From a candidate division WOR-3 bacterium (GTDB taxonomy: Bacteria > Hydrothermota > Tepidihabitantia > Tepidihabitantales > Tepidihabitantaceae), in the NCBI GenBank assembly GCA_013177935.1, contig JABLXZ010000002.1, positions 384,181-448,180 of the forward strand: a DNA stretch of 64,000 bases, read 5' to 3'. Positions 10,741 through 52,284 of this stretch are shown here, in pieces. Made by a program: the position numbers and the translations under genes. Under the pieces are notes generated by a model. It made no database searches. It was given only the letters and a program-made list of their open reading frames with translations, and was not told the DNA's origin. Within the stretch, counting starts at the first letter, position 1. Each line of letters starts with the position of its first letter.

Positions 10741-12204
10741 CTAAGGTTCCCGGATATCGCCGTCAACACAGTCGTAAAATGTGTTGTTGGCACGGAGTTC
10801 CGCGGGTGATGGATATTCGCTACCGGTAAGATAGATGCCATAGGCGGCGCTGTGGCCGATTGAGTCGCCCTGAATTTGGGGCAGGGCGTCGTCGATGTAG
10901 ATGTTGCCATAGCCGTCACCGGCGCCATATTCAATTGTGCAGTTGATAAGTTTAGCATCGGTGTCAATGGTGTTGTCGTAAAATCCGATTGACTGCCAGT
11001 CGCCCCGGCTGGGTGATGGTGATGAGCTGATAAATCGGATGCGGCCGCTGGTGCCATCGGCATTAATTGCACCTCTGCCGCTGTAGCCGCAGTAAAACTC
11101 CACTTCGGGCATAAGTTGAATCGTTGTACCGGGCGCGATGGTCAGAACCGGGTTGTTGGTGTTGCTGCCAACGCTGACATCGCTGTTGATAACATAAGGG
11201 ACACCGGGATTTATCCAGGTGCCGGAGGTGATAACCGAGCCTCCTTTAATCAGGATACCATTCTGGGTGTTACCAGTGAAACTGTTGCCGGTGCCAATGG
11301 TCCGGGCATATTCGGCATGGATGCGCAAGGGAAACTGGTTGCAACTGGTAATGGTGTTGTTGGTAAAGGTCTGGAAACCGGCATCATCGGTGAGATAAAC
11401 ACCGTAATTTCCGCTGTAACGGAAGGTGCAGTTGGTAATTTTAACGCTGGTGATGGCGCTGGCGTAGAGCTCGCCGGGCCAGCTTGACGAGCCGCCACCG
11501 TATTCAAATGTGCAGTAACTGAAACTGGAGGTGCTCATCGCGAGGTCATAAAGTCCCACATTGTACCAGTCGCCTGGTGCTGGCGTGGCAACATTTGAGG
11601 TGAAAAGGATGGTGGAGTCCGGAGTGCCGTTGGCAATGATGGCACCGGCGGTGCCGGCGTAGCCGGTATAAAGTTCAGTTTCCGGAGCAAATTTGACAAT
11701 GCAGCCCGGTTTGATGGTCAGGGTGGCGTTGTTTTCAACCGAGATGTCGTTGTCAATGATGTGCGGGTTGCCTGAAGGGTACCAGGTTTCGTCCTGGGTG
11801 ATTGTGCCGGAGTGGTGCGTTGGTCCGGTGCCGCCGCCACCGCCGGCAATAACAATTGTGATGGCGGTTGATGTTGCCGAATTATCCGCCGCATCATAGG
11901 CTTTGGCATAGACAGTGTGAACCGAGCCAGGTGTTTCGGCAGCAGCGTCCCAGATGTAGCGGAAGGTGTCGGCGGTGCCAGCCTGGTCTGAGCCCTTTAG
12001 GGTGTTGTCGATAAAAAATTCAACTTTGGTTACCGCTTTGTTGTCAGTGGCATAGGCTTTAATCAAGATGTTACCGGCGGCAATGGTATCGTTGTTTAAT
12101 GGACTGACAATTGTAACTTGGGGGTTGGTGGTGTCACTGGTCACGCAGGTTGCCAGTATCGCAACCAGTGCGGCGACCACAGAGAGGATAGTAACTTTTC
12201 TCAT
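10741..12204 (-). CDS. Secreted right-handed parallel beta-helix repeat protein with N-terminal Ig-like domain
   Basis: Signal peptide; repeated NxT/GxY beta-helix rungs (pectate-lyase-like), Ig-like N-terminal segment. Confidence 0.5.
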   Translation of the reverse strand: MRKVTILSVVAALVAILATCVTSDTTNPQVTIVSPLNNDTIAAGNILIKAYATDNKAVTKVEFFIDNTLKGSDQAGTADTFRYIWDAAAETPGSVHTVYAKAYDAADNSATSTAITIVIAGGGGGTGPTHHSGTITQDETWYPSGNPHIIDNDISVENNATLTIKPGCIVKFAPETELYTGYAGTAGAIIANGTPDSTILFTSNVATPAPGDWYNVGLYDLAMSTSSFSYCTFEYGGGSSSWPGELYASAITSVKITNCTFRYSGNYGVYLTDDAGFQTFTNNTITSCNQFPLRIHAEYARTIGTGNSFTGNTQNGILIKGGSVITSGTWINPGVPYVINSDVSVGSNTNNPVLTIAPGTTIQLMPEVEFYCGYSGRGAINADGTSGRIRFISSSPSPSRGDWQSIGFYDNTIDTDAKLINCTIEYGAGDGYGNIYIDDALPQIQGDSIGHSAAYGIYLTGSEYPSPAELRANNTFYDCVDGDIREP

Positions 12205-12525
12205 CTCGACTCCTTTTAGGTTAGAGCTCTTGAATACCTTGTCTTAATTAAGAAAGACAAACGGCATCCGCCAATACTATACCCGGTGCCGGGGTTTTGT
12301 CAAATGGATAATGACCAGTGGGATAAACGCCGGCAGTTGCCGGTCCCGTCTTTGACTGGTATTAAACCTTGCGAACTAAGACCAGTGGCGGCGCAACAAT
12401 GGCAAAACACACAATATCCAACATCATCCCCGATACCGCCCCGGGGTTGGGTATGGAAAATTAAGCCCCAGTTGCCTAACGCTTTAAAATACGAAATGTT
12501 AGAAGAAAAAAGTGCGTTCAGCGGT

Positions 12526-12545
12526 AGTATACTTTAAAGTATACT
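12526..12545. promoter_or_regulatory. 20-bp perfect palindrome AGTATACTTTAAAGTATACT in divergent intergenic region (candidate operator)
   Basis: Exact self-complementarity read directly; core 17-mer GTATACTTTAAAGTATA recurs at 51718-51734. Confidence 0.5.
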
Positions 12546-12642
12546 TAGTTCCGGACGCAAATTTTCAATCGATGCTGGGAATGGGTGATGCTTGACCAGG
12601 GATTTTTAATCGGGAAAATTATAGAGTGAAAGGAGTTGTAAG

Positions 12643-13152
12643 ATGAAAAGGTTAATTGTCATTGTCAGCGCGCTGCTTTTTATCGTCTGTGGTGGACAGA
12701 AGCCGGCACAAACTGAGGCGCCGTCAACGGTTTCGGACACAGTAAGTTTGAAAACAGCCGAAACGGCTAAGCCGGAGTCAACCGGGTCAGCAGTTGCTCC
12801 AGAACCGACACCGGCAACGCCGGCAGAAAATGTTTCGCCAGAAAAGGTGGCGGGAAAGAGTGAAAAGCCGGCAGAACTGCCCAAACTGTGGGACTTTTTT
12901 GCAACCTGGTGTCCGCCCTGTAAGAAGCAGGCACCGATTGTGGAGGAGATTGCCCGTGAGTTTGAGGGCGTGGTTGAGGTCCGTTCCATTGACACCGACA
13001 AGGAGCAGGAACTGGCACGCAAATTCAACATTCAGGCGATTCCAACGCTGGTATTTTTGGACCCATCAGGCAAGGAACTTTCCCGTAATGTCGGCTTGAT
13101 GAGCAAAGACTCAATCATCGCCCGGTTCAAGACGCACGGGTTTATCAAGTAG
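12643..13152 (+). CDS. Membrane-anchored thioredoxin-family thiol-disulfide oxidoreductase
   Basis: WCPPC active site, N-terminal lipoprotein-like signal, Pro/Ala/Glu-rich linker, AAAGGAG SD. Confidence 0.7.
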   Translation: MKRLIVIVSALLFIVCGGQKPAQTEAPSTVSDTVSLKTAETAKPESTGSAVAPEPTPATPAENVSPEKVAGKSEKPAELPKLWDFFATWCPPCKKQAPIVEEIAREFEGVVEVRSIDTDKEQELARKFNIQAIPTLVFLDPSGKELSRNVGLMSKDSIIARFKTHGFIK

Positions 13153-13395
13153 GGCAGAAGAAAAAGGCACTATTTACTTTTTATACGGGTTTTTAGACAA
13201 ACCTTCTGGTTTTATCGAATAGCAACGCAATCTTTATCCAAATAGATTGAAAACTTTGCGAAACCATTTCATAGAACAGTGTTTATAAGAAGACCGGTCA
13301 ATCTTAACAGCGGGAACAACGCACCTAAAATGACGGGGTTCAGTTAGCTTGATAAAATAATACTTTACAAAAGAAAAAAGTCAGTTAATAATATA

Positions 13396-14034
13396 ATGGT
13401 GGTAGTGAATATGATCGGCAGATGCTCGCGTTGGAAAAAATGCAAAGCGGGTAAAAACCCAAAGATAGGGTGTTATGGGTGTGGATTTAAACATTTTGAG
13501 AATATATTAAATGAGAACAAAGAAAATAAAATGTTACAATTTTTAGCAGAAAAATTTTTTGATTTATGCTCGGAAAGACAAAATCGGGGAGGAAGGATTG
13601 CTCTTGATAAACCAATAAATGAGTTGCTCATAAAAGAGATTCAAGAGCTTAACGAGTTGAATATCGAAGACCTTACACTGACCATTAATGGAGAGGAGGT
13701 CAATTTTAAGGTTAAGTGTGACGGGAAATTTGAGTATAACAAAATATACTTTTTTTACGAGGTCAAAGGATTAGGAGAGGGTTCCAATGATATACTCTCT
13801 GCAATCACTGCTGCCCAGTTATTAAAGGAGGCAATAGGAAGTAACTACCACTATTATTATATTGGGATTACTAGAAACAACTCCAATAACGCCTTTCGCA
13901 ATAAGAAGAAGAGTAAGATTTACCCATATGTGAAATGGGCAGAAAATAAAGGTTTTTTGAAGTTCTATAGCATTGTAGACATTCAAGAACTTGTAAACGA
14001 AATTAAACAGGTAATTAATAAAAAAGAATCTTAA
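13396..14034 (+). CDS. Hypothetical protein with N-terminal Cys4 zinc-ribbon, first gene of AT-rich RM islet (possible nuclease/accessory)
   Basis: CSRWKKC...GCYGCG zinc-ribbon-like motif; K/N/I-rich AT codon usage; possible D...EVK PD-(D/E)xK-like motif; function not recognisable. Confidence 0.4.
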   Translation: MVVVNMIGRCSRWKKCKAGKNPKIGCYGCGFKHFENILNENKENKMLQFLAEKFFDLCSERQNRGGRIALDKPINELLIKEIQELNELNIEDLTLTINGEEVNFKVKCDGKFEYNKIYFFYEVKGLGEGSNDILSAITAAQLLKEAIGSNYHYYYIGITRNNSNNAFRNKKKSKIYPYVKWAENKGFLKFYSIVDIQELVNEIKQVINKKES

Positions 14035-14069
14035 AAGGCGGCATCATCTTACACGCATAAGAAGAGATT

Positions 14070-14918
14070 ATGACCCATCATAAGTTGATAATTGGCAATT
14101 GCATGAGTATGAAAGAGATTCCAGATGAGAGTGTCCATCTGATGGTTACTTCCCCACCATATTTCAATGCACCTTTTGACTATAAAGGGCTATTTAAAAA
14201 TTATGACCAGTACCTTGGTGTTCTTAATAGGGTAGCCAAAGAAGTTTATAGAGTATTAAAAGAAGGCAGGATTGCTGTCTTAAACATTGATGATATGCTT
14301 GTCAATAGTGAAAAGTTTCCTATTGTTGCGGATGCAACGAAAATATTTCAAAGTGCGGGTTTCCGGTATCGGGATAGGATTATCTGGAAAAAACCTGATG
14401 GCTATTTAAGAATCAGCAGGAGAAGCGGGGTACTTCTCCAAAATCCTTATCCGATGTACTTTTACCCGGATAATCTTTTAGAAAGTATAATTATTTTTCA
14501 AAAAGGGAAATTTAACTATCATTCCATCCCCAAGGAAATTAGGGAAGCATCAAAGATAGACCTAAAGGAATTTTCTGATAACAAATGGTATATGACATTA
14601 TGGGAAATGGTTAATGTTTTGCCCAACTCGCCGTTAGAAAAGGAAATTGCGGCATTTCCCGAAGAGTTGCCTTATAGGATAATTAAACTATTTTCGTATA
14701 AAGGAGAAACAGTCTTAGACCCGTTTGTCGGCAGTGGTACCACAATGAAGGTTGCCCGAGAACTCGGCAGAAACAGTATCGGGATTGAGATAAAAAAGTC
14801 ATTGATTCCGATTATCAAGAAAAAGGTGGGTTTTGAAGGACAGTTGAAGATTGAGAACAGCGATGACACATTTGAGGTTATAATAAGGGAAGGCGTCAAG
14901 TATGGATGTGTCGGCTAA
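14070..14918 (+). CDS. Beta-class N4-cytosine/N6-adenine DNA methyltransferase (Type II RM)
   Basis: Motif IV SPPY near N-terminus (MVTSPPYFN) and motif I FVGSGTT near C-terminus = beta-class amino-MTase order. Confidence 0.8.
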   Translation: MTHHKLIIGNCMSMKEIPDESVHLMVTSPPYFNAPFDYKGLFKNYDQYLGVLNRVAKEVYRVLKEGRIAVLNIDDMLVNSEKFPIVADATKIFQSAGFRYRDRIIWKKPDGYLRISRRSGVLLQNPYPMYFYPDNLLESIIIFQKGKFNYHSIPKEIREASKIDLKEFSDNKWYMTLWEMVNVLPNSPLEKEIAAFPEELPYRIIKLFSYKGETVLDPFVGSGTTMKVARELGRNSIGIEIKKSLIPIIKKKVGFEGQLKIENSDDTFEVIIREGVKYGCVG

Positions 14919-15975
14919 AATTACCGGCATTAAATATTCGCCCCTTTTATGCCGAAATCTGAATACATATTCATTAAGGCAACTTGATGAGGCGTTATCA
15001 AGAGATAGCGCTTTTATTTTAAATGTGGATAACATGGGGCAAGTTGCAGTAAGTTGGTGGGTTTCAGCGAAGAGAACAAGGTCTTATCCTTACGCCCGGG
15101 TTTACGATACCCTTAGCTTTCAAGGTAAAAAAGTCACCATAATCCCAATTGTGAAAGATGAAGGAAAAGAAGGAGACCGAGACTTTTTACAGTGGGATAC
15201 TATTTCGTTAATGAGTTTATTAGGTGTTTACACAATTATCTCTTATTACAATTATGCGGAAAGAAGTCGTAGATATCGGCACAAAATAACAAGCCAGCGG
15301 TTTGATATCACACACCTTACAAGGGAAGTAAACAACCTTATGTCCTATCAATCAGATGCCTTACATTGGAACCTTGCTCAAATTGAGAATGTTGGAGAGA
15401 TAGGCAAACGGGCAATTGATTCCTATGAAAGGATTTCAAAAGAGCTTGGTGTTGAAATGCACTCCAGAGAGTCAGCCAGGGAAAGAATTGCAGAGCTCCT
15501 TAAAGGTAAAGAAAATTTTATGACGCTTTCGAGAGATTTGGCGAGGAAAGCACAAGAACGGGAATCGCAAACAAACCAACCCAAAGAAAAGTTATCCGGA
15601 ATAAAAGCAACTCTAACGATAAAAAACTATATTGGCGGTTATTATTTTTTTACCTGCGACGAGGTTAATATCGAAAAGGGAGTTATACAGTTAATAGAGG
15701 GAAAACATAGCAAGCAAAGCATCATTCCTTCATTGGAAGACATAAAAGATGGATTAGTGAAAATGATTTTATTTACTAATTTGACGGAAGTGAAAATTGG
15801 GGATGTTAAGTATAAGCCTGTCTCGATCTTAAAACTTACAAGCGACCGGAAGTTTTCATTAGCATCTTTAAGCAAGTCAAGGGTAAACGATTTACGACTT
15901 CTGAAAAGAGAAGCGATAGTGAATAATTTTAAGGTATTGGTAAACAATATCGATTTGCAGGAAATTGATATATGA
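14902..15975 (+). CDS. Candidate cognate Type II restriction endonuclease (hypothetical)
   Basis: Overlaps MTase by 17 nt (translational coupling), same AT-rich codon usage; possible PD-x13-ExK (CDEV...IEGK); no recognisable family. Confidence 0.4.
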   Translation: MDVSAKITGIKYSPLLCRNLNTYSLRQLDEALSRDSAFILNVDNMGQVAVSWWVSAKRTRSYPYARVYDTLSFQGKKVTIIPIVKDEGKEGDRDFLQWDTISLMSLLGVYTIISYYNYAERSRRYRHKITSQRFDITHLTREVNNLMSYQSDALHWNLAQIENVGEIGKRAIDSYERISKELGVEMHSRESARERIAELLKGKENFMTLSRDLARKAQERESQTNQPKEKLSGIKATLTIKNYIGGYYFFTCDEVNIEKGVIQLIEGKHSKQSIIPSLEDIKDGLVKMILFTNLTEVKIGDVKYKPVSILKLTSDRKFSLASLSKSRVNDLRLLKREAIVNNFKVLVNNIDLQEIDI

Positions 15976-16123
15976 GAAGGACGATTAGCGGTGGATAATA
16001 CACCGAAAAGGTGTGCACATAATGGAATGCACAATGATTTTAATGCAATATAACAAAAGATATAACACATTCATAGCAGGTAGAACCTTGCAAATAGGCT
16101 ATTTTTGAGGAGCACAAAACCTA

Positions 16124-16235: not shown

Positions 16236-18899
16236 ATGGTAAATAAACCGTTGTGTTTGTTAATCGGTTTAGCCCTTTTGTTTTCGGTTTTGGTTAGTTC
16301 CCCGGTTACAAAGTTGCCACCCTCCACCCCAAGCCAAAACAATTCCGAGACTTTTTATCTAAACAACAACCGCTTTGTCACCAGAATTTATGCCCAACCT
16401 ATTGACCAGCATCGTGAGAGTGAAAGGCTGCCGGTTATGGCAGAATCAACCCGGCGCGCCTATCCTCAGAATGACGGTTTCTGGACCGGCAATGTGAGGA
16501 CCAGAACCAACAATTGGGAAAAAAACTCGGGGGATATTGTCGCGACCAGTCAACCCCAAAGCGCCTCCCAGTGGTGGTATCAAGGCTGGTTTAAATTTGA
16601 CCTGTCCACCATTCCGGACGATGCGATAATTGACACGGTGAGTCTTAATTACTACTGCTACGAAGCGGCAAGCGGTCCCAGTACCTTTATCCGTCTGTTG
16701 CCTGGTGACCCGGTGCCGCAAACACCTCAAACGCTCTGGAACTGGATAACGACCGGTACCGCACTAACTCTCGCCCAGACGCATGGACTGGGCTGGATAA
16801 CGCGCGTTCTGAACAGTACGGGCCGCGCCGCGGTAGAGTCCTGCTTGACCCAGAACTGGATTGCGCTTGGTTTGCACGAATGGACCAACCGCACCGGAGC
16901 GATTTTAAGGGCGTATGGTATTGGTACCGGGCAGTACGTTCCTTACCTTGAAATCGCTTACAACCTGCCAGCGCGCACCGATATTTCTGCGGAAGAGGTG
17001 CTGGAACCGGTGGGTAATATCCCTCAGGGAACAATAATCGTACCGACCGGAAGGTGGCGTAATCGGCAACCCCATCCGGATGATTACTATGCCTGGTTTA
17101 TCTTCATTAGCCCGACAAATCAACGCTACACATTGCCCGGAAAGTTTGTCCAGGGGCACCCGGGTTTGAGTGATACTATTCTGTTCTTTACCCCGTTTGC
17201 TTTAAACGATACCGGCCGCTGGACCGTTAAATGTTCCACTTATGCCGAGGGCGATATTGACCAGAATAACGATGTTATTCTACGGTTCTTCCGGGTATTC
17301 TCCAGTGGTTCTGGGAATAACTTTGATGTGGCGGTCACCGAAATTTTTTCGCCGGTTGGGGTTTATGACACCAACGCAACGATTGTGCCCCGCGCCTCCT
17401 GGAAGAATAACTCTGCCAATTCAGCGACATTTTATGCCTATGTGGGCTTGACCAATCCAGCCGGTATTAGAACATACACCAATTCGTATATTGTTACCAA
17501 TCTGCCGGCAGGGGCTGATACTACAATTGAATTTGTTCCTTATAATGTGGGTATGGATACCGGGCGCTGGGCGGTATGTTGTTCGACCGTGGCAATCGGT
17601 GACACATATCCGGATAACGACTGGCGTCTTGGTCAATTTGCCGTTTATGAGGGTGGTGGTGCCAACCAAGCGGGCTGGTATGAAAAAACACCGATGCCGT
17701 TACAGCCTTCGGGTAAATCGATAAAAGACGGTGGCTGGCTGACCTTTGACCAGGGAAGCGGTTTACTTTTCGCTGCCAAGGGGAATAAGACCGGTGATTT
17801 CTACTGTTATGACCCGCAGGCTGATACCTGGCACGAACTGAACTTCTGGCCCGGGGGAATAGAAGGTAAAGGTCCGTCAAAGGGTGCGGTCGGTATTGCG
17901 GATGGGTATGGCCGGATTTTTGCGGTAAAAGGAAACAACACCCGGGGGTTCTGGTGCTATTATCATGAAGGGGACTCCTGGCGTCAACTTCCGGATGTGC
18001 CGCTTGGACCATCAAACAAAAAGGTCAAGGGGGGCAGTGATGTTGTGTATGTTGAACAGGGAGGTACGCCTTTTGTTTATCTCTTGAAGGGGTATAAAAA
18101 TGAGTTTTATCGTTTTAACTTAACGACCGACTCCTGGGAGCTTTTGCCCGAAGCACCCCAGGCGATTCACCCGAAATGGGACAAAGGGTCGTGGCTGGTG
18201 TACGATGGCAATCAGTACATATATGCGCACAAAGCAAAGTATCACGAATTCTGGCGGTTTGACCTTTACACCCTTACCTGGGATACAACGCGGCTGCAGG
18301 GGATGCCATTTTTGAGCCGGACCGGGAAAAACAAAAAAGCAAAGGATGGCAGTAGTGCGGCATATCGGGATGGCGCGATATTTGCATTAAAGGGTGGCAA
18401 TACCTGTGAGTTCTACTGCTATGACATTATCGGCGATACCTGGACCGAGCTGGCACCAATGCCCGAGGTTGGTTCAACCGGCAGAAAGAAAAGGGTGAAG
18501 GGCGGCGGCGACATTACCGTATATTCGCCAACTATGATTTTTGCCCTGAAAGGTAACAAAACCCGGGAACTTTGGTGCTATTACACGCCGACATTAAATT
18601 CGGCGGCGCCCTTACAGGGGATAACCAGTGCCTCCTCAACGCCGCGATTTGATTTTGGTCTCTTTCCCAATCCCTGCCGTGCTAACGAAGTCACTGTTTT
18701 CTGTCCGGATACACGAAGCGGCTTATTGACAATCTCGCTTTACGACATAACCGGCGCGCTCCGCCTGAAAAAACAGTTAAACCTCACAAAAACTGCCGGG
18801 CGCACCCTGGACCTGTCGTCGATACCTAACGGCATCTACTGGGTAAAATTAGAACAGGGCAAAAGGGCACGGGCGCAGAAGTTAGTTGTCAATCGGTAG
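16236..18899 (+). CDS. Large secreted beta-propeller (Kelch-like) / CARDB-like repeat protein with T9SS C-terminal domain; paralog of 46891..50931
   Basis: Signal peptide, repeated KGxxxEFxxYD...W propeller blades, C-terminal T9SS tail; C-terminal 300 aa ~60 percent identical to 46891 ORF. Confidence 0.6.
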   Translation: MVNKPLCLLIGLALLFSVLVSSPVTKLPPSTPSQNNSETFYLNNNRFVTRIYAQPIDQHRESERLPVMAESTRRAYPQNDGFWTGNVRTRTNNWEKNSGDIVATSQPQSASQWWYQGWFKFDLSTIPDDAIIDTVSLNYYCYEAASGPSTFIRLLPGDPVPQTPQTLWNWITTGTALTLAQTHGLGWITRVLNSTGRAAVESCLTQNWIALGLHEWTNRTGAILRAYGIGTGQYVPYLEIAYNLPARTDISAEEVLEPVGNIPQGTIIVPTGRWRNRQPHPDDYYAWFIFISPTNQRYTLPGKFVQGHPGLSDTILFFTPFALNDTGRWTVKCSTYAEGDIDQNNDVILRFFRVFSSGSGNNFDVAVTEIFSPVGVYDTNATIVPRASWKNNSANSATFYAYVGLTNPAGIRTYTNSYIVTNLPAGADTTIEFVPYNVGMDTGRWAVCCSTVAIGDTYPDNDWRLGQFAVYEGGGANQAGWYEKTPMPLQPSGKSIKDGGWLTFDQGSGLLFAAKGNKTGDFYCYDPQADTWHELNFWPGGIEGKGPSKGAVGIADGYGRIFAVKGNNTRGFWCYYHEGDSWRQLPDVPLGPSNKKVKGGSDVVYVEQGGTPFVYLLKGYKNEFYRFNLTTDSWELLPEAPQAIHPKWDKGSWLVYDGNQYIYAHKAKYHEFWRFDLYTLTWDTTRLQGMPFLSRTGKNKKAKDGSSAAYRDGAIFALKGGNTCEFYCYDIIGDTWTELAPMPEVGSTGRKKRVKGGGDITVYSPTMIFALKGNKTRELWCYYTPTLNSAAPLQGITSASSTPRFDFGLFPNPCRANEVTVFCPDTRSGLLTISLYDITGALRLKKQLNLTKTAGRTLDLSSIPNGIYWVKLEQGKRARAQKLVVNR

Positions 18900-23206: not shown

Positions 23207-25714
23207 ATGAGCGGTTCTAAGTGGCAGTTTGTTTCTATCGGGATTTTCCTTACCCTGACCTGGGCGCAGCCGGCAATAGAATGGCGTTCAATCGGAATGG
23301 GTGGTGGTGGCTGGTTTACAACTATCGCTATTGACACCCTGAACCCGGGTACAGTTTATGTTGGTTCGGATGTGGGCGGGTTTTATAAGTCAACCGATTA
23401 CGGCTCTTCCTGGCGGATACTCAACAACGGTTTGATTGACTACTATGTAGAAAAGATTGTGCCCCATCCCCAAAATCCCAATGTGATTTATCTTGGTACC
23501 TGGGGCGGTGTCCACAAATCAACCGATGGCGGTGAAACCTGGGTGCCAAAACGGGACGGTTTTCCTGTGCCCAGCCGGTCAAATTACACCGCACCGATTG
23601 GGGCACTGACCTTTGACCCGACAAATCCTAATGTAATTTATGCGGGAATCGGTATGCCCCGGCTTATGTACACCGAATCCCGCTGGATTCAGACCTCGAC
23701 CAAAGGAGCGATTTTCAAAAGCACTGATGGTGGCGAAACCTGGCAGATGCTAAGAGGCACAACCGGTATTGATACCACGGCGATGTTTTATTCCCTTGCG
23801 GTTGACCCGCACAATCCGAATGTGATTTTTGCCGGTACCCATTTAGGTGTTTATCGCAGCACCGACGCCGGGTTGACCTGGGAGATGAAAAATTCCGGTT
23901 TGCCCCCAATGCCGGACAGTGTTGTCGTGCGGGAGGTTGCGATTGACCCGGTTGACACGGGCAGGGTTTACGCCGCACTCTGTCCAATTAATGATAGTGA
24001 ACGCAACTCGGTGTGTAGCGGGATATGGTTGACAACCAATTATGGCGAAATGTGGCAGCCCTGCACCACCGGTGCCTGGCGGATTAACTTCCGGCGGATA
24101 GTTGTTAACCATAAGAATCCGAATGTCCTTTACGCCGGTGCGCTTTATGGTTATGGCGGGCGCGGCGGTGTTTACAAAAGCACCAATCGCGGCCAAAACT
24201 GGGTTCGGGTAACGAATAACAACAATGTCAGCCGGGGCTGGATTTACTTCTGGGGTTATACACCTGATGGTCTGGCGCTGGACCAGAGGGACACAGCGAT
24301 AATTTTCTATTGTAATTCCCATGCGGTGATGAAGTCAACCGATGCGGGTGGTAACTGGACTTACTGTTACGCTGAGTCGCTGGGCAATGGTAACTGGCGT
24401 GGCACCGGTCTTGAGGTAACCTGTCTGCGCCAGGTTGTTCCTGACCCGGTGGACTCAAATACTATTTACTTTGCAATGAACGATGTCGGACTGATAAAGT
24501 CAACCGACCGGGGCGCTTCGTTCCGGTATATCTTTGCGCCGATGTATCCCTACGGCAACACCACCTATACCATTGCCATTCATCCTGCTAATCACAACAT
24601 CCTCTATGCGGGCACCGGACCCTGGACCTGGGTTTATGGTAAACTCTGGCGCTCGACCGATGCGGGTGCAACCTGGACACTGCTTTCTGGTTTGCCGGAC
24701 ACCGGTTACAAAAGTACCATCCTGATTGACCCGAACAGTACCGAAGACTCCACCATTCTTTATGTCTGGGTGGCAAAATGGGGTGTATACAAGTCAACCG
24801 ATGGCGGTGAGAACTGGAAGCGCAAGGACAACGGGTTGAATATCACCATCCGCAGCGACTCGTTTATCCACAGCCATCCGCAGATGATGGCGATGGCGTC
24901 TAATGAGCCGAACACCCTTTACCTGTGTCTGCCCAAACGGGGCAAAATTTATAAAACCACCGATGGCGGTGACCACTGGTTTGAACTTCCTTTGTCCAGA
25001 AGGCTGGAAACCTGGGGTGTGGCGGTTTCACCGCTCAATGGTGCGGTGTTTCTGATAGCACGTGCCTCAATGTATGGTGGCGTTTACCGCTCATTTGATG
25101 GCGGTATGACCTGGGACTCCATACCCCGTTTCCGGATTGATGGTTATCGTCCCTGTGTGCGGACGGTTGCCTTCAGTCCGTTTGATACCAATCTGGTGGC
25201 GCTGGGTACTCTTGACTGGGCTCAGAATGACTCCTGTACCGGCTGGGGCGTTTATCTTTCCACGGACCAGGGTGAGACCTGGTTTGAGGCAAATCAGGGG
25301 CTGGGAAATCGGCGGATTTATTATCTTGCCTTTGATTTGTTCAACCCGCAACTTTTGTATGCGGGCACCAGTGGTAACGGTGTTTTTGCCGCCTCAATCA
25401 GTACAGTGGCAACAGCGGAAGCAAAAACCAGGGGAGGGAAAGATTACTATCTTCGGGTTTGCCCCAGTGTTGTCAATCAACAAACTCGGATTAGTTTTGT
25501 TCTTCCCAACCAGACCGATATCAGCCTTGCCATTTACGATGCGCTGGGTAGAAAGGTTTCTAACCTTTGCAACCAGCGCCTTGGTCCGGGTCAATATGAG
25601 TTCACCTGGCAGGGAGATTTACCAAACGGTCGTTTCGTAAACAACGGGGTTTACTTTGTGGTTCTTAACGCCGACACCGAAGTGTTGCGGCAGAAAATAA
25701 CAATTAGCCAATAG
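23207..25714 (+). CDS. BNR/Asp-box repeat beta-propeller protein with T9SS C-terminal domain
   Basis: At least 8 SxDxGxTW Asp-box repeats (STDGGETW, STDAGLTW ...), signal peptide, T9SS tail. Confidence 0.65.
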   Translation: MSGSKWQFVSIGIFLTLTWAQPAIEWRSIGMGGGGWFTTIAIDTLNPGTVYVGSDVGGFYKSTDYGSSWRILNNGLIDYYVEKIVPHPQNPNVIYLGTWGGVHKSTDGGETWVPKRDGFPVPSRSNYTAPIGALTFDPTNPNVIYAGIGMPRLMYTESRWIQTSTKGAIFKSTDGGETWQMLRGTTGIDTTAMFYSLAVDPHNPNVIFAGTHLGVYRSTDAGLTWEMKNSGLPPMPDSVVVREVAIDPVDTGRVYAALCPINDSERNSVCSGIWLTTNYGEMWQPCTTGAWRINFRRIVVNHKNPNVLYAGALYGYGGRGGVYKSTNRGQNWVRVTNNNNVSRGWIYFWGYTPDGLALDQRDTAIIFYCNSHAVMKSTDAGGNWTYCYAESLGNGNWRGTGLEVTCLRQVVPDPVDSNTIYFAMNDVGLIKSTDRGASFRYIFAPMYPYGNTTYTIAIHPANHNILYAGTGPWTWVYGKLWRSTDAGATWTLLSGLPDTGYKSTILIDPNSTEDSTILYVWVAKWGVYKSTDGGENWKRKDNGLNITIRSDSFIHSHPQMMAMASNEPNTLYLCLPKRGKIYKTTDGGDHWFELPLSRRLETWGVAVSPLNGAVFLIARASMYGGVYRSFDGGMTWDSIPRFRIDGYRPCVRTVAFSPFDTNLVALGTLDWAQNDSCTGWGVYLSTDQGETWFEANQGLGNRRIYYLAFDLFNPQLLYAGTSGNGVFAASISTVATAEAKTRGGKDYYLRVCPSVVNQQTRISFVLPNQTDISLAIYDALGRKVSNLCNQRLGPGQYEFTWQGDLPNGRFVNNGVYFVVLNADTEVLRQKITISQ

Positions 25715-33893: not shown

Positions 33894-35576
33894 ATGCAAC
33901 GGGCTAAAGTTATTTCGGTTCTGCTGTTAACATTTGGCACCCTCGTCTGGGCGGCAGAACAAGCCAGTTCCATTGGAACTGTAAATCGGGGTGCGTTTGA
34001 CCCGCGGGTTAAGGCGTTGCGGCAGGAGCAGGAACAGGTAAAGGACAATCCGACAAAGGTGAGGGAGATTGAGAATCGAATTCAAGAAATCTATCTTGAA
34101 TACGACCAGTCGGGTGGCAGGGCAGATAATGCCATAATCCTTGCCGCCAACGACGAGCAACAGTTATTTTCTGATGGACCGGATGTGGTGATTGACACCG
34201 GTACCATCTGGGCAACCGCTGCCGACTACGAGATGGACGGCACGATGTGGGTGGCATATTCCCGGGAGCGTGATTCAAGTGTGCGGGTGGTGAAGTCAAC
34301 CGACCATGGCAGTACCTGGCAACCGGTAATAGGATTTTATACCAATCCCCGTTCTTTAATTAAACGGCTGGGAATGGTGGTTGGTGCCGGAGATTCGGCA
34401 TTTGTGTATGTTGGGGTTATTCACCCGAATAACAACGGTGATATGCTCTGCATCCGGTTCAATCGTGATGGCAGCGGTTTCACAGGTTTCATGGCGCTTC
34501 AGGGTGCGGACACCATCAACAACTTCACAATGTGCCGGGACTATGTTTACCCTTACTATTTATATATCTGCGCGGGCGACGAAGACAATACACAGGAGTT
34601 GGATGATTTCATGCTGCGTTCCACCGACTTTGCCAAAAACTGGACTACGACAAACACATTTCGTTTTGTCAGCTGGGGTTCCTATCAGGCGGGTGCGGGT
34701 TCTTATCTCTACCTTGCAGGATATCCAGGTTTCAGTCCCGCTCGCGGGCGTGTTAATCTATTAGTAAATAGGTTTTTTGGCGTACCCGACTCCTGGCATG
34801 AACGGCAGGTTCAGTATGATACATTTGAAGTTGCGGACCCGGTGATGGCACCTTCATTTGTTACACCACCCCAGAACGCGGTGATCTGGGTGGTATATGC
34901 GCACAATTATCTGAACTCGGGCGACTGGGACATCATGTATGCGTATTCAACCGATGCGGGCAACTCCTGGAGTTCCAGTTACTATCTTGCGAGCAGGACT
35001 GACCGCTATGAGCGGTATCCAGACCTCAAGAACTACACATCGGTTGGTAACGAGTATGTCAACGCCTCTTATGTCAGTGAGGCGACTTACCGTTATGTTT
35101 ACCGGCACTGGGCAGCACAGAGTGACCCGGTTAACTGGTCTGACACCTTGCGGATTAACTCCAATTCCGCAGGAACCGGTAGAGAGATAAAGCCCCTGTT
35201 AGTGTATTCACCGGGTGCGCCCGCTACCGGTGCCGGGTGTGTATTTGTTGGTCAGGGTTTGCGGGGTCTCTACTGGAACGCACCCTGGATGGTTGGTATT
35301 CAGGGGGAGAATGCCGCACTGTCAGTAAATAAGAGCGGTTTTGAGGTGCTGCCCAATCCGGTTACCAATCACACCACATTTTTCTGGAGCGGCAATGCTT
35401 CCCGGTTGACAGTCTATGATGCCAGCGGCAGACAGGTGTGGTATTGCAACAATCCAACAAGCGGTGTGCAGTGGAACCGAACCGATTTGTCCGGAAAGCG
35501 GGTGAGTGCAGGAGTTTACTTTGCGCAACTGACCAGGGCGAATGGTATCAGCAAAAGTACCCTGGTGGTGAAATAA
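33894..35576 (+). CDS. Secreted sialidase-like/BNR-propeller protein with T9SS C-terminal domain; paralog of 37834..39528
   Basis: STDHGSTW and STDAGNSW Asp-boxes, conserved block GD.A.V.VG...PYYLY shared with 37834 ORF, T9SS tail. Confidence 0.55.
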   Translation: MQRAKVISVLLLTFGTLVWAAEQASSIGTVNRGAFDPRVKALRQEQEQVKDNPTKVREIENRIQEIYLEYDQSGGRADNAIILAANDEQQLFSDGPDVVIDTGTIWATAADYEMDGTMWVAYSRERDSSVRVVKSTDHGSTWQPVIGFYTNPRSLIKRLGMVVGAGDSAFVYVGVIHPNNNGDMLCIRFNRDGSGFTGFMALQGADTINNFTMCRDYVYPYYLYICAGDEDNTQELDDFMLRSTDFAKNWTTTNTFRFVSWGSYQAGAGSYLYLAGYPGFSPARGRVNLLVNRFFGVPDSWHERQVQYDTFEVADPVMAPSFVTPPQNAVIWVVYAHNYLNSGDWDIMYAYSTDAGNSWSSSYYLASRTDRYERYPDLKNYTSVGNEYVNASYVSEATYRYVYRHWAAQSDPVNWSDTLRINSNSAGTGREIKPLLVYSPGAPATGAGCVFVGQGLRGLYWNAPWMVGIQGENAALSVNKSGFEVLPNPVTNHTTFFWSGNASRLTVYDASGRQVWYCNNPTSGVQWNRTDLSGKRVSAGVYFAQLTRANGISKSTLVVK

Positions 35577-37833: not shown

Positions 37834-39528
37834 ATGAGAAGTATGATAGTCACGCTGGCATTAGTTTTAATGCTCAGCAGTATCTGGGCGGCGGTTGACC
37901 GCAACGCCCCGGGCACTCTGTTTCAAGACCGATTTCCCGTTTTTCAGAACGGAGGTTCATCGGAAGGAGCGGTTCCGTACCGATTCACAAACGAAGGCGA
38001 TGCACTACCTGGACAGGTTGATAAACCAGCAGCACCCGCTTTTGGCGCGCCGCCCCAAATTTTAGAAATGACTGATGAGGGGAATCCGGTTGAACCCAAG
38101 CCATTGTGGGGAGAGGATATTCAGGTTTATGATGGCGGAATCAAAAGCCCAGTACCAGCGGGTTCGGAGCGGATGATTGCCTATGACCAGACCCACGCCG
38201 GTGTTCTGTTTGCGGCATTTGTGGTTGAGAATGGTGACACAATCAGGATTTACCGATCAACCGATAGCGGCAATACCTGGAGTAATTGGAATGGGGTGCA
38301 GCATCCGAGCAATGTGCTGAGTTCACCAGAACTGGTTGTCGCAGAGGGCGACTCCAGTTTTGTATTCCTTTTTTTCCGCACATCGGCGAATAATGGCGAT
38401 GCTTACTGTGCCAGATTCGGATTAACCGGCGGTATTAATATGTTTTCGGTTAAGGTGGATAGCGATACCATTGTCAATCTTGCCGCATGCAAGGACAACG
38501 GCAATCCTTATTATCTCTATGTTACTTATGAGTTACATGATGGCACTTATGATGTTTGGCTGATGCGTTCAACCAATTATGGAATAACCTGGACCGCACC
38601 ATCGGGTTTTGTTAATGATACCCGTATTCCACCTAAACCGGACATCGCGGTCGGTTACAACAACCGGGTCTATGTCTCTTGGCTTGATAAACGGCAGAGT
38701 TCGGTTGACTCGGCTTCTTTCCGGATTAAGCGTTCTACGGACCGGGGGAATACCTGGGAGCAGTCAAGGCAGGTGGGAGGACCGCAGGTGCGGGTGTTTG
38801 ATGGCGTGATTGGAGCGGATAATACCGACCCGAGCATCTGGCTGGTTCATGTCCGGGATATGGAGCCCTTTAATGGGATGGGGCTGGGTGTATTCTATTA
38901 CTACACCACGACTGATGACACAATCTGGTATTACGGTGGTGATGAAGGTATTGGCCACGGTGATACCGATAACAACGAAAAGATGCCCAGTATCGCTACC
39001 CATTGGTCATCGGGCGTTCCGACCGTATGTTATGCCATCGTGCCATCGGAATCACTGATGTTCACCTGGTGTCCTGGAGATACGAACTGGACAACGCCGC
39101 ACAAGGTGAACAACCATCGGCACACCGGCAATTTTGCACCAGCCGCCGGGTGGAAAAATGTCGGTTCCGCTTCTTTTTCAACTGTGCTCTATGCCGGTGT
39201 TGGACCAGAGGACCTGTGGTTTGACTCCTGGGATAATACAACCGGAGTGAATGAGGAGAATCCGGCAGGAATCAAACAGGTGGTTGCGGTGAAACCAAAC
39301 CCGGCAACGGGTAGAGCGGTAATCAACTGGGCAACTGTTAGCAGCGGCACAGTGCAACTGACGATTCACGATGTTACGGGCAGACGAGTTGCAACACTCG
39401 TTCAGGGACATTTGAATCCGGGTGATTACCAGACGGTCTGGAACTGCGCGGATGTGCCCGCAGGTGTTTATCTGTACCGGTTGAATGGAACATCAGCGGA
39501 AACAGGCAGGATTGTAGTTTCCCATTAA
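37834..39528 (+). CDS. Secreted sialidase-like/BNR-propeller protein with T9SS C-terminal domain; paralog of 33894..35576
   Basis: Asp-boxes STDSGNTW, STNYGITW, STDRGNTW; T9SS tail; AAAGGAG SD. Confidence 0.55.
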   Translation: MRSMIVTLALVLMLSSIWAAVDRNAPGTLFQDRFPVFQNGGSSEGAVPYRFTNEGDALPGQVDKPAAPAFGAPPQILEMTDEGNPVEPKPLWGEDIQVYDGGIKSPVPAGSERMIAYDQTHAGVLFAAFVVENGDTIRIYRSTDSGNTWSNWNGVQHPSNVLSSPELVVAEGDSSFVFLFFRTSANNGDAYCARFGLTGGINMFSVKVDSDTIVNLAACKDNGNPYYLYVTYELHDGTYDVWLMRSTNYGITWTAPSGFVNDTRIPPKPDIAVGYNNRVYVSWLDKRQSSVDSASFRIKRSTDRGNTWEQSRQVGGPQVRVFDGVIGADNTDPSIWLVHVRDMEPFNGMGLGVFYYYTTTDDTIWYYGGDEGIGHGDTDNNEKMPSIATHWSSGVPTVCYAIVPSESLMFTWCPGDTNWTTPHKVNNHRHTGNFAPAAGWKNVGSASFSTVLYAGVGPEDLWFDSWDNTTGVNEENPAGIKQVVAVKPNPATGRAVINWATVSSGTVQLTIHDVTGRRVATLVQGHLNPGDYQTVWNCADVPAGVYLYRLNGTSAETGRIVVSH

Positions 39529-45249: not shown

Positions 45250-46578
45250 TTATTCAAGTTTAATGAACTTCGCGGTATTGGTTTCGCCTTGGCGCACAAA
45301 ATAGACACCGGGCATAAGGTTGCTGATGTTGTTTTCTCCCGGGGTTAATATGACGGTTAATTTGCCGGTGGCGTCGTACAGGGCAACGGGCGTGGTGCTT
45401 AAAACCCGGAGGGTATTGTATGCCGGATTAGGAGTAATGAGTTTGGTTTTCGGTTGGCACAAACCTTCGGTGCCGTTTTCTTCTATGCCGAGGGAGTTAA
45501 AGCGATAAAAAACTTCAACATTACCGGTCTGGCGGCTGGTCCAGAAGGCGTGGAGGTCGTTCATTCCGTCAACTGCGATTTGAGGTTTGGCACGAGTGCC
45601 TTCGGCATCACCCGATATTTTCACCGTATCGGACCAAGAAGAGCCATTGTCGGTGGAATAAAACCAGAGGACGCGATTGTCTTCTTTAAGACTGAGCGCA
45701 TGGGTTACGCCGGTGGGTAAAAATGCGATATCGTTGATAAGGGCGCGCAGGGTTGTTTCATTAAGCCAGTTGTCGCCGCCATCGGTGGACCGTCGGAAAT
45801 TGCGGGTCTGGCCAAAAATTGTAAAGGATAGGAATAGATAATTACCATTAGCCCAGATGCCTACGGGAACCGTCTGACTGGAGGTCGAAATTTGCCGCGG
45901 TGAATTCCATGTTGTGCCATTATCGGTGGAACGGAGATAATAGGTTTGGGCGTTACCCATACCGCCATAGGCGTAAGCGATATGAATTGCGCTGCCACTG
46001 GTAGCAGCACAGATGCTCTGGAAACCGGTCTGAGTGATAACATCAGTACGGTTCCAGTTTGTCCCGCCATCGGTTGACTTGTAGAGTTCTAATTGAGGCG
46101 GGGTGGTGGGTTTAACATTTAGTATATATACATTTTGGGGACCATTTGTTAATAAAAGAGGGACATCAACTTCAGCGGTTACCTGTTGAGCGGTGGACCA
46201 GGTTGCGCCGGCGTCGGTCGAGCGTCGATACCACAATCCGCCATCAGCCCGGCGATTGATAAAGTGCACATTACCGGAACTATCGGCAGCGATGCTGAAT
46301 GTATAACTATAAGGCATCTCGTCAATTACAGACGGCGAAGCCCATGTTGCTCCCCGGTCTGTGGAGCGAAGATAGAGTACTTTCCTATCGCCGCCAACCA
46401 CATCAGAATAAACGATATGCAGGTTATTACCCATTACCGCTACCGCTCTACCAGAGAAGGGCATATTGGAGTTGTCTGGTGAGACGGTTAGCTGACGGAT
46501 TGCTCCCCAGTCGGCATAGGCATTGAGGCTACAAATCAGCATCAAACCGATGCTTATTACTATTGGCAGTCTTTGCAT
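45250..46578 (-). CDS. BNR/Asp-box repeat beta-propeller protein with T9SS C-terminal domain
   Basis: Six Asp-boxes (STDRGATW, STDAGATW, STDGGTNW, STDNGTTW, STDGGDNW, STDNGSSW); start refined to MQRLPIVISIGLMLICSLNAYA with GGAGG SD. Confidence 0.6.
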   Translation of the reverse strand: MQRLPIVISIGLMLICSLNAYADWGAIRQLTVSPDNSNMPFSGRAVAVMGNNLHIVYSDVVGGDRKVLYLRSTDRGATWASPSVIDEMPYSYTFSIAADSSGNVHFINRRADGGLWYRRSTDAGATWSTAQQVTAEVDVPLLLTNGPQNVYILNVKPTTPPQLELYKSTDGGTNWNRTDVITQTGFQSICAATSGSAIHIAYAYGGMGNAQTYYLRSTDNGTTWNSPRQISTSSQTVPVGIWANGNYLFLSFTIFGQTRNFRRSTDGGDNWLNETTLRALINDIAFLPTGVTHALSLKEDNRVLWFYSTDNGSSWSDTVKISGDAEGTRAKPQIAVDGMNDLHAFWTSRQTGNVEVFYRFNSLGIEENGTEGLCQPKTKLITPNPAYNTLRVLSTTPVALYDATGKLTVILTPGENNISNLMPGVYFVRQGETNTAKFIKLE

Positions 46579-51541: not shown

Positions 51542-51718
51542 AATTACCTCCTTTTTAATGCAATAAGTTTAGTAACACCGTTTTTTAATGTCAAGGAAAA
51601 AAGTCGGGCAGGGTTGCGTTCTTAAATCAAAGGAAGAGGTTTGCGAAGTAAAATTTGCTGGGCAGATATTATAAAGGAAGGTTTAAACCGTGATACGCGG
51701 TTTTGTTTTTCCAACCTG

Positions 51719-51734
51719 TATACTTTAAAGTATA
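51719..51734. promoter_or_regulatory. 16-bp palindrome TATACTTTAAAGTATA (second copy of motif at 12526)
   Basis: Perfect palindrome; shares 17-mer GTATACTTTAAAGTATA with 12527-12543. Confidence 0.45.
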
Positions 51735-52284
51735 ATAGCCGTAAATGGCTGTTTTCATATAACATATTGTAATTTAGATAGTTAACATAATGGGATACAA
51801 TTTTCCCTACCCAACCCCGGGGTAGTCTCCGGAATGGTATGGGAAATTGAAGTTGAGGTGGTTTTGGGGTGAGAACCTGATTCACCTGACCGGCTAATAA
51901 TCGGCACCATTAACGGGTTTGAGTGCAGGGTAAAATTGGGTTGGGTGGTGATAAGATAGAAGACCGGAAAACCGGGCGGGGTGGGTTGAGCCGAATTTCA
52001 GGCTTGACCGGGTATAATTTGCCAGTTAAAATTGGGATGATGAACTCAGTTAGAGCCGTGGTTTGCAGGAGGTGGCGTAGATGAACCGCCCATTTTACCG
52101 GAGCGGTCTGCTCCACCTTCAAGGACAGAATAGCGCGGCTCGTTTAGTTTCCCCAAAACAGTCAGGGACCGGCAGTCGGGAAAGATGAAGCTCCGGTTTT
52201 GTGCCGGCGGTCTGCCGGTTCGTAAAAGTAAGCACCAACTAAAAGCCCAACAAAAAAACAACCAGACAAAACAAAGGAGGTAAA

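Follow-up and report, generated by a model that had tools for sequence, protein, structure and literature searches.

Much is known about the dispersed intergenic repeats of Proteobacteria and Firmicutes; to our knowledge, descriptions of such repeats from candidate phyla are very scarce. Among the closest described systems are BIME-1 or RIB/RIP (REP - IHF site - REP) and ERIC or IRU of Enterobacteria, which like the element described here are about 100-130 bp long, non-coding, intergenic, and dispersed. BIME-1/RIP and ERIC consist of palindromic units with a bend or IHF-type motif between them; they are recognised by DNA-binding proteins of the host and are often kept at orthologous positions. 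The Correia elements of Neisseria, which are classed as MITEs, share with the present element a length in this range (100-160 bp), an internal IHF-like motif, a location near gene starts, and a pattern of presence and absence among related genomes, and BOX elements can be named together with these families as mosaic intergenic repeats that resemble it in their logic.

The window, i.e. the whole stretch of 64,000 nucleotides analysed here, contains two copies of a lineage-specific, non-coding composite repeat of about 135 bp which belongs to one clade of candidate division WOR-3 and is new. Our preferred reading, to which we give roughly even chances on the strength of sequence comparisons, is that the element may serve as a protein-binding module of double-stranded DNA, the terminal dyad of which would be bound by a dimeric helix-turn-helix (HTH) protein, and that its copies may derive from the region in front of the regulator gene.

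A composite element at two sites of the window

The first-pass annotation of the window had pointed out a perfect 20-bp palindrome, AGTATACTTTAAAGTATACT, about 100 bp upstream of a thioredoxin gene, and an exact recurrence of its 17-nt core at a second intergenic site. These observations were confirmed: the palindrome is present at 12526-12545, the thioredoxin-like gene (start 12643) begins 97 nt past its end, the 17-mer GTATACTTTAAAGTATA occurs exactly a second time at 51718-51734, overlapping a 16-bp perfect palindrome (51719-51734), and both sites are intergenic. They represent the two longest perfect palindromes of the window, and with up to three mismatches allowed the 17-mer is found in these two places only within the 64 kb. 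Chance matches in dinucleotide-preserving shuffles had a mean of 0.05, and the observed count was reached in none of 100 shuffles; the recurrence is non-random. The description of the 17-mer as AT-only in a GC-rich genome was inaccurate, because G or C occurs at 3 of the 17 positions and the window has about 52% G+C, with 37-42% between 12 and 16 kb.

The similarity of the two sites had been thought to comprise 17 nt and in fact covers about 135 nt in inverted orientation. A repeat finder detected a 101-nt inverted repeat (12412-12512 versus 51749-51849) adjoining both palindromes, and pairwise alignment and an nhmmer profile gave a homology of about 135 nt, 12412-12545(+) versus 51849-51716(-), with approximately 73% identity, which ends exactly at the palindrome. 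A second block perfectly shared by the two copies, CCCCGGGGTTGGGTA[T/G]GGAAAATT, is located about 75 nt from the palindrome. The palindrome is thus the terminal block of a composite element and no stand-alone operator. Of the two readings offered initially, an operator or a small dispersed palindromic repeat, the second was right with respect to dispersal and wrong with respect to the repeat unit, which is the element of about 135 nt. The features of both copies and the flanking promoters are listed in Table 1.

Table 1 Positions of the two element copies, their blocks, and the neighbouring promoters in the window
Feature	Position	Strand	Remarks
Element copy 1	12412..12545	+	Inverted-repeat block to palindrome; nhmmer E=3e-44; aligned with 38 other copies
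Inverted-repeat ("hairpin") block, copy 1	12412..12461	+	CAATATCCAACATCATCCCCGATACCGCCCCGGGGTTGGGTATGGAAAAT; imperfect dyad
Middle A/T-rich block, copy 1	12476..12501	+	CTAAC ... AA ... C-AA-N4-TTA; near-invariant TAA, AA, A, and TTA columns
20-bp perfect palindrome, copy 1	12526..12545	.	Family-wide core TATACTTTAAAGTATA at 12528-12543; homology ends here
Element copy 2	51716..51849	-	Inverted relative to copy 1; nhmmer E=1.5e-42
Inverted-repeat block, copy 2	51800..51849	-	CCCCGGGGTTGGGTAGGGAAAATT match at 51799-51822(-); alignment
Middle A/T-rich block, copy 2	51760..51785	-	TTAAC ... GTTA on minus strand
Palindrome, copy 2	51718..51735	.	17-mer 51718-51734; perfect 16-bp dyad 51719-51734
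Sigma-70-like promoter of Big_7/beta-helix gene (12204-10741)	12276..12303	-	TTGACA-16-TATAGT; 11/12 matches
Weaker promoter-like sequence before thioredoxin-like gene	12592..12619	+	TTGACC-16-GAAAAT
Promoter of 181-aa secreted-protein gene	51566..51594	-	TTGACA-17-TAAACT; conserved in relatives without the element
Promoter of SAM-methyltransferase gene	52004..52032	+	TTGACC-17-TAAAAT; conserved in relatives without the element

In an alignment of 39 copies, the element is composed of a 50-nt inverted-repeat block, a spacer of 14 nt, a 26-nt A/T-rich block, a spacer of 27 nt, and a 16-bp dyad. The 50-nt block (consensus CAATTTCCCATACCATCCCCGAGACTACCCCGGGGTTGGGTAGGGAAAAT) is an imperfect inverted repeat of 17 pairs, 85% of which are Watson-Crick pairs over the 39 copies, and the middle block follows the pattern TTAAC...AA...CAA-N4-TTA. 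The terminal dyad has the consensus TATACTTTAAAGTATA, after which homology stops; within its core, ATACTTTAAAGTA, 12 of the 13 positions show no variation among the 39 copies, and a single copy deviates at the thirteenth. Outside the element, a weak 'aaaaccg' is recognizable 15-21 nt to the left. The spacers, whose sequences are unrelated, vary in length by at most 1-2 nt and contain almost no indels.

Distribution, conservation, and probable gain of the element

After removal of duplicates, 44 distinct copies were obtained; sorted by their flanking genes, they represent about 19 ortholog groups or loci. All of them come from a few related genomes of candidate division WOR-3, each with at least 11-15 copies found and about 20 sites estimated; homologues of the window's proteins are likewise named "candidate division WOR-3 bacterium". 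A scan of 185,579 species-representative genomes with the pattern GGGGTTGGGTANGGAAAA, which does not include the palindrome, returned 82 loci; the full element was present at 24 of them, from only two MAGs, the WOR-3 bin SLF170214_bin_372 (at least 11 loci) and "uncultured bacterium SRP231805_co4_173" (at least 13 loci), and the remaining 58, from many phyla, had no similarity outside the seed pattern. The palindrome core was exact in the 23 genome-scan copies that reach the palindrome region, except for one substitution in L085, and in this set the conservation of the dyad is free of ascertainment by the search pattern. Twenty-nine more loci from six JGI samples were found in a metagenome scan with a two-block pattern. 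A viral origin was rejected, two scans of viral contigs having given chance matches only, and the diagnostic strings ATACTTTAAAGTAT and GGGGTTGGGTAGGG did not occur in the full texts of the papers searched. Copy 1 of the window has orthologous copies in L109 and L134, copy 2 in L101, L145, and L085, and most loci are common to several species, which indicates that the copies are stable. The window belongs to a metagenome contig of Logan run SRR6186653, and a second contig of this run, L002 (SRR6186653_17047), ends inside the element (positions 1-137); the repeat breaks short-read assemblies.

The blocks of the element differ strongly in conservation. Between non-orthologous loci, identity was 0.29-0.33 in the flanks, 0.34-0.36 in the spacers, 0.60 in the middle block, 0.85 in the inverted-repeat block, and 0.95 in the dyad, and the corresponding values within ortholog groups were 0.58-0.61, 0.65, 0.81, 0.90, and 0.98; the values for the inverted-repeat block are inflated, because the exact-match search patterns made use of it. 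Since the spacers have diverged like unrelated DNA whereas their length is fixed and the blocks are kept, both the blocks and their spacing are under purifying selection in place, and a decaying insertion would look different. Deviations from the palindrome, which concern outer positions, are never compensated on the opposite arm; the palindrome is conserved as sequence. With up to two mismatches, its core occurs 54 times inside the element and not once outside it in 504 kb of these genomes.

At both loci of the window, more distant WOR-3 relatives possess the same divergent gene pairs and core promoters and lack the element. In L151, where the flanking protein is 73% identical, 314 nt separate the methyltransferase gene from the gene for the 181-aa protein, compared to 743 nt in the window, and L152, L155, and L156 are also devoid of the element at this locus. 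Similarly, the region between the Big_7 and thioredoxin-like genes measures about 210 nt in L157, L159, and L163 (81-82% identical) compared to 438 nt in the window. Overall, the flanking proteins of the relatives without the element are 59-82% identical to those of the window. A decayed copy in opposite orientation is present in L153, an ortholog with 50% identity. The absence from distant relatives makes a lineage-specific gain of the dispersed copies the likelier explanation, repeated losses being less likely. Neither the flank profiles of 19 loci nor the alignments with relatives, which are too diverged for exact borders, revealed a target-site duplication.

Among the approximately 19 loci, the flanking genes are divergent at about 10, tandem and pointing in the direction of the right-hand gene at 2, tandem and pointing the other way at 4, and convergent at 1, and no preferred orientation of the element toward a gene was seen. 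Divergent intergenic regions account for 10% of all intergenic regions by count and for 34% by length in these genomes, and the observed share therefore fits either a preference for promoter regions or a length-weighted insertion. A replication-oriented motif was also considered and rejected, as the two copies of the window have opposite orientations in a region of uniformly positive GC skew.

Such a roughly length-weighted distribution would be expected of a purely selfish, non-autonomous mobile element of the MITE or REP type, with ends recognised in trans and no function for the host, as would the multiple dispersed copies with sharp borders, their presence or absence at orthologous loci (absent at site 2 from L151, L152, L155, and L156 and at site 1 from L157, L159, and L163), the decayed and inverted copy in L153, and the break of an assembly contig. 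We nevertheless consider this explanation rather unlikely. Of the hallmarks of MITEs, the presence/absence pattern was found, whereas terminal inverted repeats are absent, since the ends on the left (CAATTTCCCATACC...) and on the right (...AAAGTATAC) are unrelated and not reverse complements, and the flanks contain no target-site duplication or target motif apart from the weak 'aaaaccg'. Within +/-6 kb of the copies, neither transposase-like nor recurrent genes were present; an all-against-all BLAST of the ORFs in these regions yielded no family at more than three loci, and the families shared near copies are common secreted repeat proteins. Moreover, the copies are old, with spacers at background level and end blocks 90-98% identical at orthologous loci without indels, a pattern which neutral relics would not show, and they are stable at loci common to several species.

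Very large secreted proteins with internal repeats are also encoded in the window (17765-18583, 49791-50606, 23384-25114, 34286-34982, 38251-38292, 45763-46224). Their repeats are BNR/Asp-box-like SxDxGxxW units and periodic repeats of about 150 nt, and FlgD_ig/CHU_C tails of type IX secretion occur; such proteins are usual in this lineage and have no connection with the element.

Coding capacity, RNA structure, and neighbouring promoters

Two ORFs of the window, 12286-12537(+) and 51885-51622(-), overlap the element copies and would encode similar peptides of 83 and 87 aa. A small protein gene was rejected, as substitutions between the window copies, counted by inspection of the pairwise alignment, are equally distributed over the three codon positions, none of the reading frames stays open from a shared start, and the 39 copies have neither start nor stop in common. 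The conserved small ORF with a start codon that characterizes short-ORF repeats, e.g. type I toxin-antitoxin loci, is absent.

The two conserved blocks can both fold as hairpins, and the element might accordingly be viewed as a small structured RNA family or a cis-acting RNA motif, in which the left and palindrome hairpins would constitute the domains. The fixed length of the element would suit such an RNA, and so would the stem re-formed with a different loop or different arms in L134, L130, and L166 and the one-sided changes of the left stem (about 16-18) that keep G-U pairs on the forward strand. In the count of one-sided C-to-T changes in the 5' arm of the inverted repeat, 18 keep G-T or G-U pairing on the forward strand versus 7 resulting in A-C, which leans slightly toward a single-stranded form of the forward strand and against the reading as double-stranded DNA. 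We regard an RNA as quite improbable all the same. RNAalifold, applied to both strands of 39-41 copies with and without 45-nt flanks, predicted the two dyads only, double compensations within the family numbered zero, and covariation was absent from the 14- and 27-nt spacers and with the flanks. Deviations in the palindrome are never compensated, and fold energies were barely better than those of shuffled sequences (z -1.5 to -3.3 as RNA, -0.3 to -2.8 as DNA). A search of Rfam 15 gave nothing at the gathering score and nothing relevant even at E<=10, and no tRNAs were found. In either orientation, a conserved promoter or terminator is lacking, including an internal sigma-70 promoter, the divergent promoters around the element fire away from it, and at the copy in front of the HTH gene described below the element lies upstream of the predicted transcription start. 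The sequence TTTCCA-17-TATAAT at 51708-51736 was rejected as a promoter of the element because it is present in the second window copy alone. A G-quadruplex formed by GGGGTTGGGTAGGG...GGG was also rejected, as several copies have an interrupted third G-run (TATGG or TAAGG).

The plus strand at 51685-51703, immediately to the left of the palindrome of site 2, contains a hairpin followed by a T-run (AAACCGTGATACGCGGTTT TGTTTTT) that resembles a terminator, with no plus-strand gene upstream of it; judged by eye, the hairpin is seemingly not kept in the flank of the ortholog L101. On the other side, the SAM-methyltransferase gene possesses a leader of about 250 nt between promoter and start codon (52033-52284(+)), which is strongly conserved at four orthologous loci and also in L151, a relative without the element. 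Long stems are predicted for it by RNAalifold, Rfam contains no match, and the leader might represent a cis-regulatory RNA, so far undescribed, of a methyltransferase of the ubiE/COQ5 type.

Both window copies are situated between two divergent promoters of the sigma-70 type and overlap neither of them. At the first site, the Big_7 promoter lies 109 nt outside the left end of the element, and the TTGACC on the thioredoxin side is conserved in relatives without the element. The second palindrome had been assigned to the leader of the methyltransferase gene; the gene's own promoter is, however, situated about 270 nt downstream of the palindrome, and the nearer gene is that on the minus strand (51541-50996), whose start is approximately 175 nt away. 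Over the whole family, the dyad was found about 50-170 nt and more upstream of the flanking core promoters, its distance from the flanking -35 boxes ranges from 47 to more than 270 nt in either orientation, and only at the HTH gene does the dyad overlap a promoter.

The neighbouring genes encode, among others, thioredoxin, methyltransferase, adenylate kinase, alanine racemase, Macro-domain, nitroreductase, urocanase, LptF/G, and subtilase proteins. A coherent regulon was rejected, as Pfam annotation of about 25 flanking proteins was heterogeneous and about 40 flanking genes had no common function. A link to the adjacent low-GC island was likewise rejected, the other copies having housekeeping neighbours. 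This island (12000-16000, 37-42% versus about 52% G+C) harbours an N6/N4 DNA methylase gene (14070-14918) between two ORFs (13396-14034 and 14902-15975) without a Pfam match, and is probably a horizontally acquired restriction-modification system. With no fixed promoter distance and no function shared by the neighbours, a regulon is not demonstrated.

As in the operator of a transcription factor, it is the sequence of the dyad and not its pairing that is conserved; a defined promoter position and a coherent target set were not found. The dyad is conserved symmetrically and in place, and binding by a dimeric regulator is plausible. By contrast, the proposal that a stand-alone operator of 17-20 bp co-regulates the thioredoxin and SAM-methyltransferase genes and links the two loci in a regulon is scarcely tenable despite the perfect symmetry, the intergenic sites, and the non-chance recurrence, because the dyad never occurs without the other approximately 115 nt, precedes the -35 box of the thioredoxin gene by 47 nt and that of the methyltransferase gene by about 270 nt, each gene having its own promoter in between, is missing from relatives that keep both genes and promoters, and recurs at about 19 loci with unrelated neighbours.

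The XRE/HTH_31 gene and comparison with known systems

The sequence had been said to give no hint of the regulator. Related genomes do offer a candidate: in L083, L141 (= L069), and L164 a gene for an XRE-type protein of about 335 aa (Pfam HTH_31) begins 12-17 nt past the dyad, which overlaps its promoter. In L083/L141, the 27-nt spacer provides the -35 box and the dyad provides the promoter spacer and the -10 box (TTGCCC-16-TATAAT). The dyad would thus extend from about -24 to -9 relative to the predicted start site. Binding sites of autorepressors usually overlap the promoter near these positions. The protein of L164 is 73% identical and preceded in the same place by a full copy of the element (E=9e-33; TTGCCC-16-TATACT), and that of L166 is 52% identical and preceded by a diverged, still recognisable copy (E=1.4e-5; TTGACG-16-TATAAT). 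In this latter copy, the outer arms of the inverted repeat have changed on both sides and are still complementary (AATTTCCC/GGGAAAAT to AATTATCC/GGATAATT); a point against our reading is that at the position of its dyad no more than 5 of 8 pairs are symmetric. Four species, among them L166, keep a promoter whose spacer and -10 region contain the dyad. As the HTH locus is the only one tested that retains the element at such a divergence, it looks like the ancestral or founder copy.

Among 5.8 billion proteins, the XRE protein family forms 8 clusters, all from WOR-3 or unnamed MAGs, and its named members are annotated as "helix-turn-helix ... [candidate division WOR-3 bacterium]". The C-terminal part of the protein (P0132/P0133; genes at L164 10001-11056 and in L141), some 225 residues, is confidently predicted to fold into an all-helical domain (pLDDT 85-97). 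Conserved Arg, Trp, and Cys are frequent in this domain (e.g. RTSxCxxxCQxGRRWFxIxWRTR), for which neither a Pfam or NCBIfam family nor an informative PDB neighbour was found.

According to our preferred reading of the element as a protein-binding module, it would act as double-stranded DNA, namely as a spacing-constrained platform on which a multi-site protein complex may assemble. A dimeric HTH protein would bind to the dyad, the inverted-repeat block would offer another binding site, and bending of the DNA between the two might be made possible by the A/T-rich block (CAA-N4-TTA), which resembles an IHF site. The clade-restricted XRE/HTH_31 protein is the candidate binder, as the dyad over its own promoter would correspond to the classic geometry of autorepression; this suggestion draws on adjacency at one of about 19 loci and deep conservation there, and one regulator neighbour is expected by chance among about 38 flanking genes. 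That this specific protein is the binder is a tentative assignment in which we place limited confidence. The copy at the HTH gene could then be the founder from which the others spread, and the dispersed copies could represent extra sites for the XRE protein, modulating or insulating the neighbouring divergent promoters. In a combined scenario, the clade-specific regulator, with a helical C-terminal domain not seen before, would have acquired about 20 sites by copying its autoregulatory region of 135 bp (inverted repeat, bend site, and operator, but not the -35 box) to the spacers between other promoters, and selection would have kept the entire module intact since then; we judge this scenario unlikely when taken as a whole. 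If true, it would show a complete cis-regulatory module multiplying across a genome, and such copy-and-paste of a whole module would represent the growth of a regulon or of a set of chromosomal sites.

Apart from this scenario, the element is unusual in having no transposon-like ends and in conserving three blocks and their exact spacing with free sequence in between, as is characteristic of protein-DNA complexes with several binding sites. Moreover, one copy constitutes the promoter of a rare regulator gene and thus provides a concrete candidate protein-DNA pair in an uncultured lineage. In practical terms, the element breaks assemblies and could serve as a marker of this WOR-3 clade.

With respect to known systems, the element is of the kind of the dispersed intergenic repeats, with a testable link to a regulator, and is not categorically new. 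In comparison to BIME-1 and ERIC, it seems unrelated in sequence, its two palindromic units are unlike each other, its copies number in the tens rather than in the hundreds, it resides in promoter-containing and mostly divergent spacers rather than at the 3' ends of operons, and its spacers are fixed in length and free in sequence. It does not conform to REP/BIME (REPIN) sequences, which are short imperfect palindromes of 20-40 nt present in hundreds of copies, located mostly downstream of genes, and associated with a RAYT gene; a RAYT-type gene was not seen within +/-6 kb of the copies. Unlike Correia elements, it has neither terminal inverted repeats nor a duplication of TA or another target, and its copies are ancient and selected in place rather than recent, near-identical insertions. 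The dyad itself can be compared to the PlcR box (TATGNAN4TNCATA), the 16-bp site of a pleiotropic XRE-type regulator: it is likewise a 16-bp A/T-rich sequence of 5-6-5 geometry, and as in the case of PlcR there are tens of sites per genome at variable distances from the -10 box, one of them over the promoter of the regulator's own gene, or in the present case of the candidate's.
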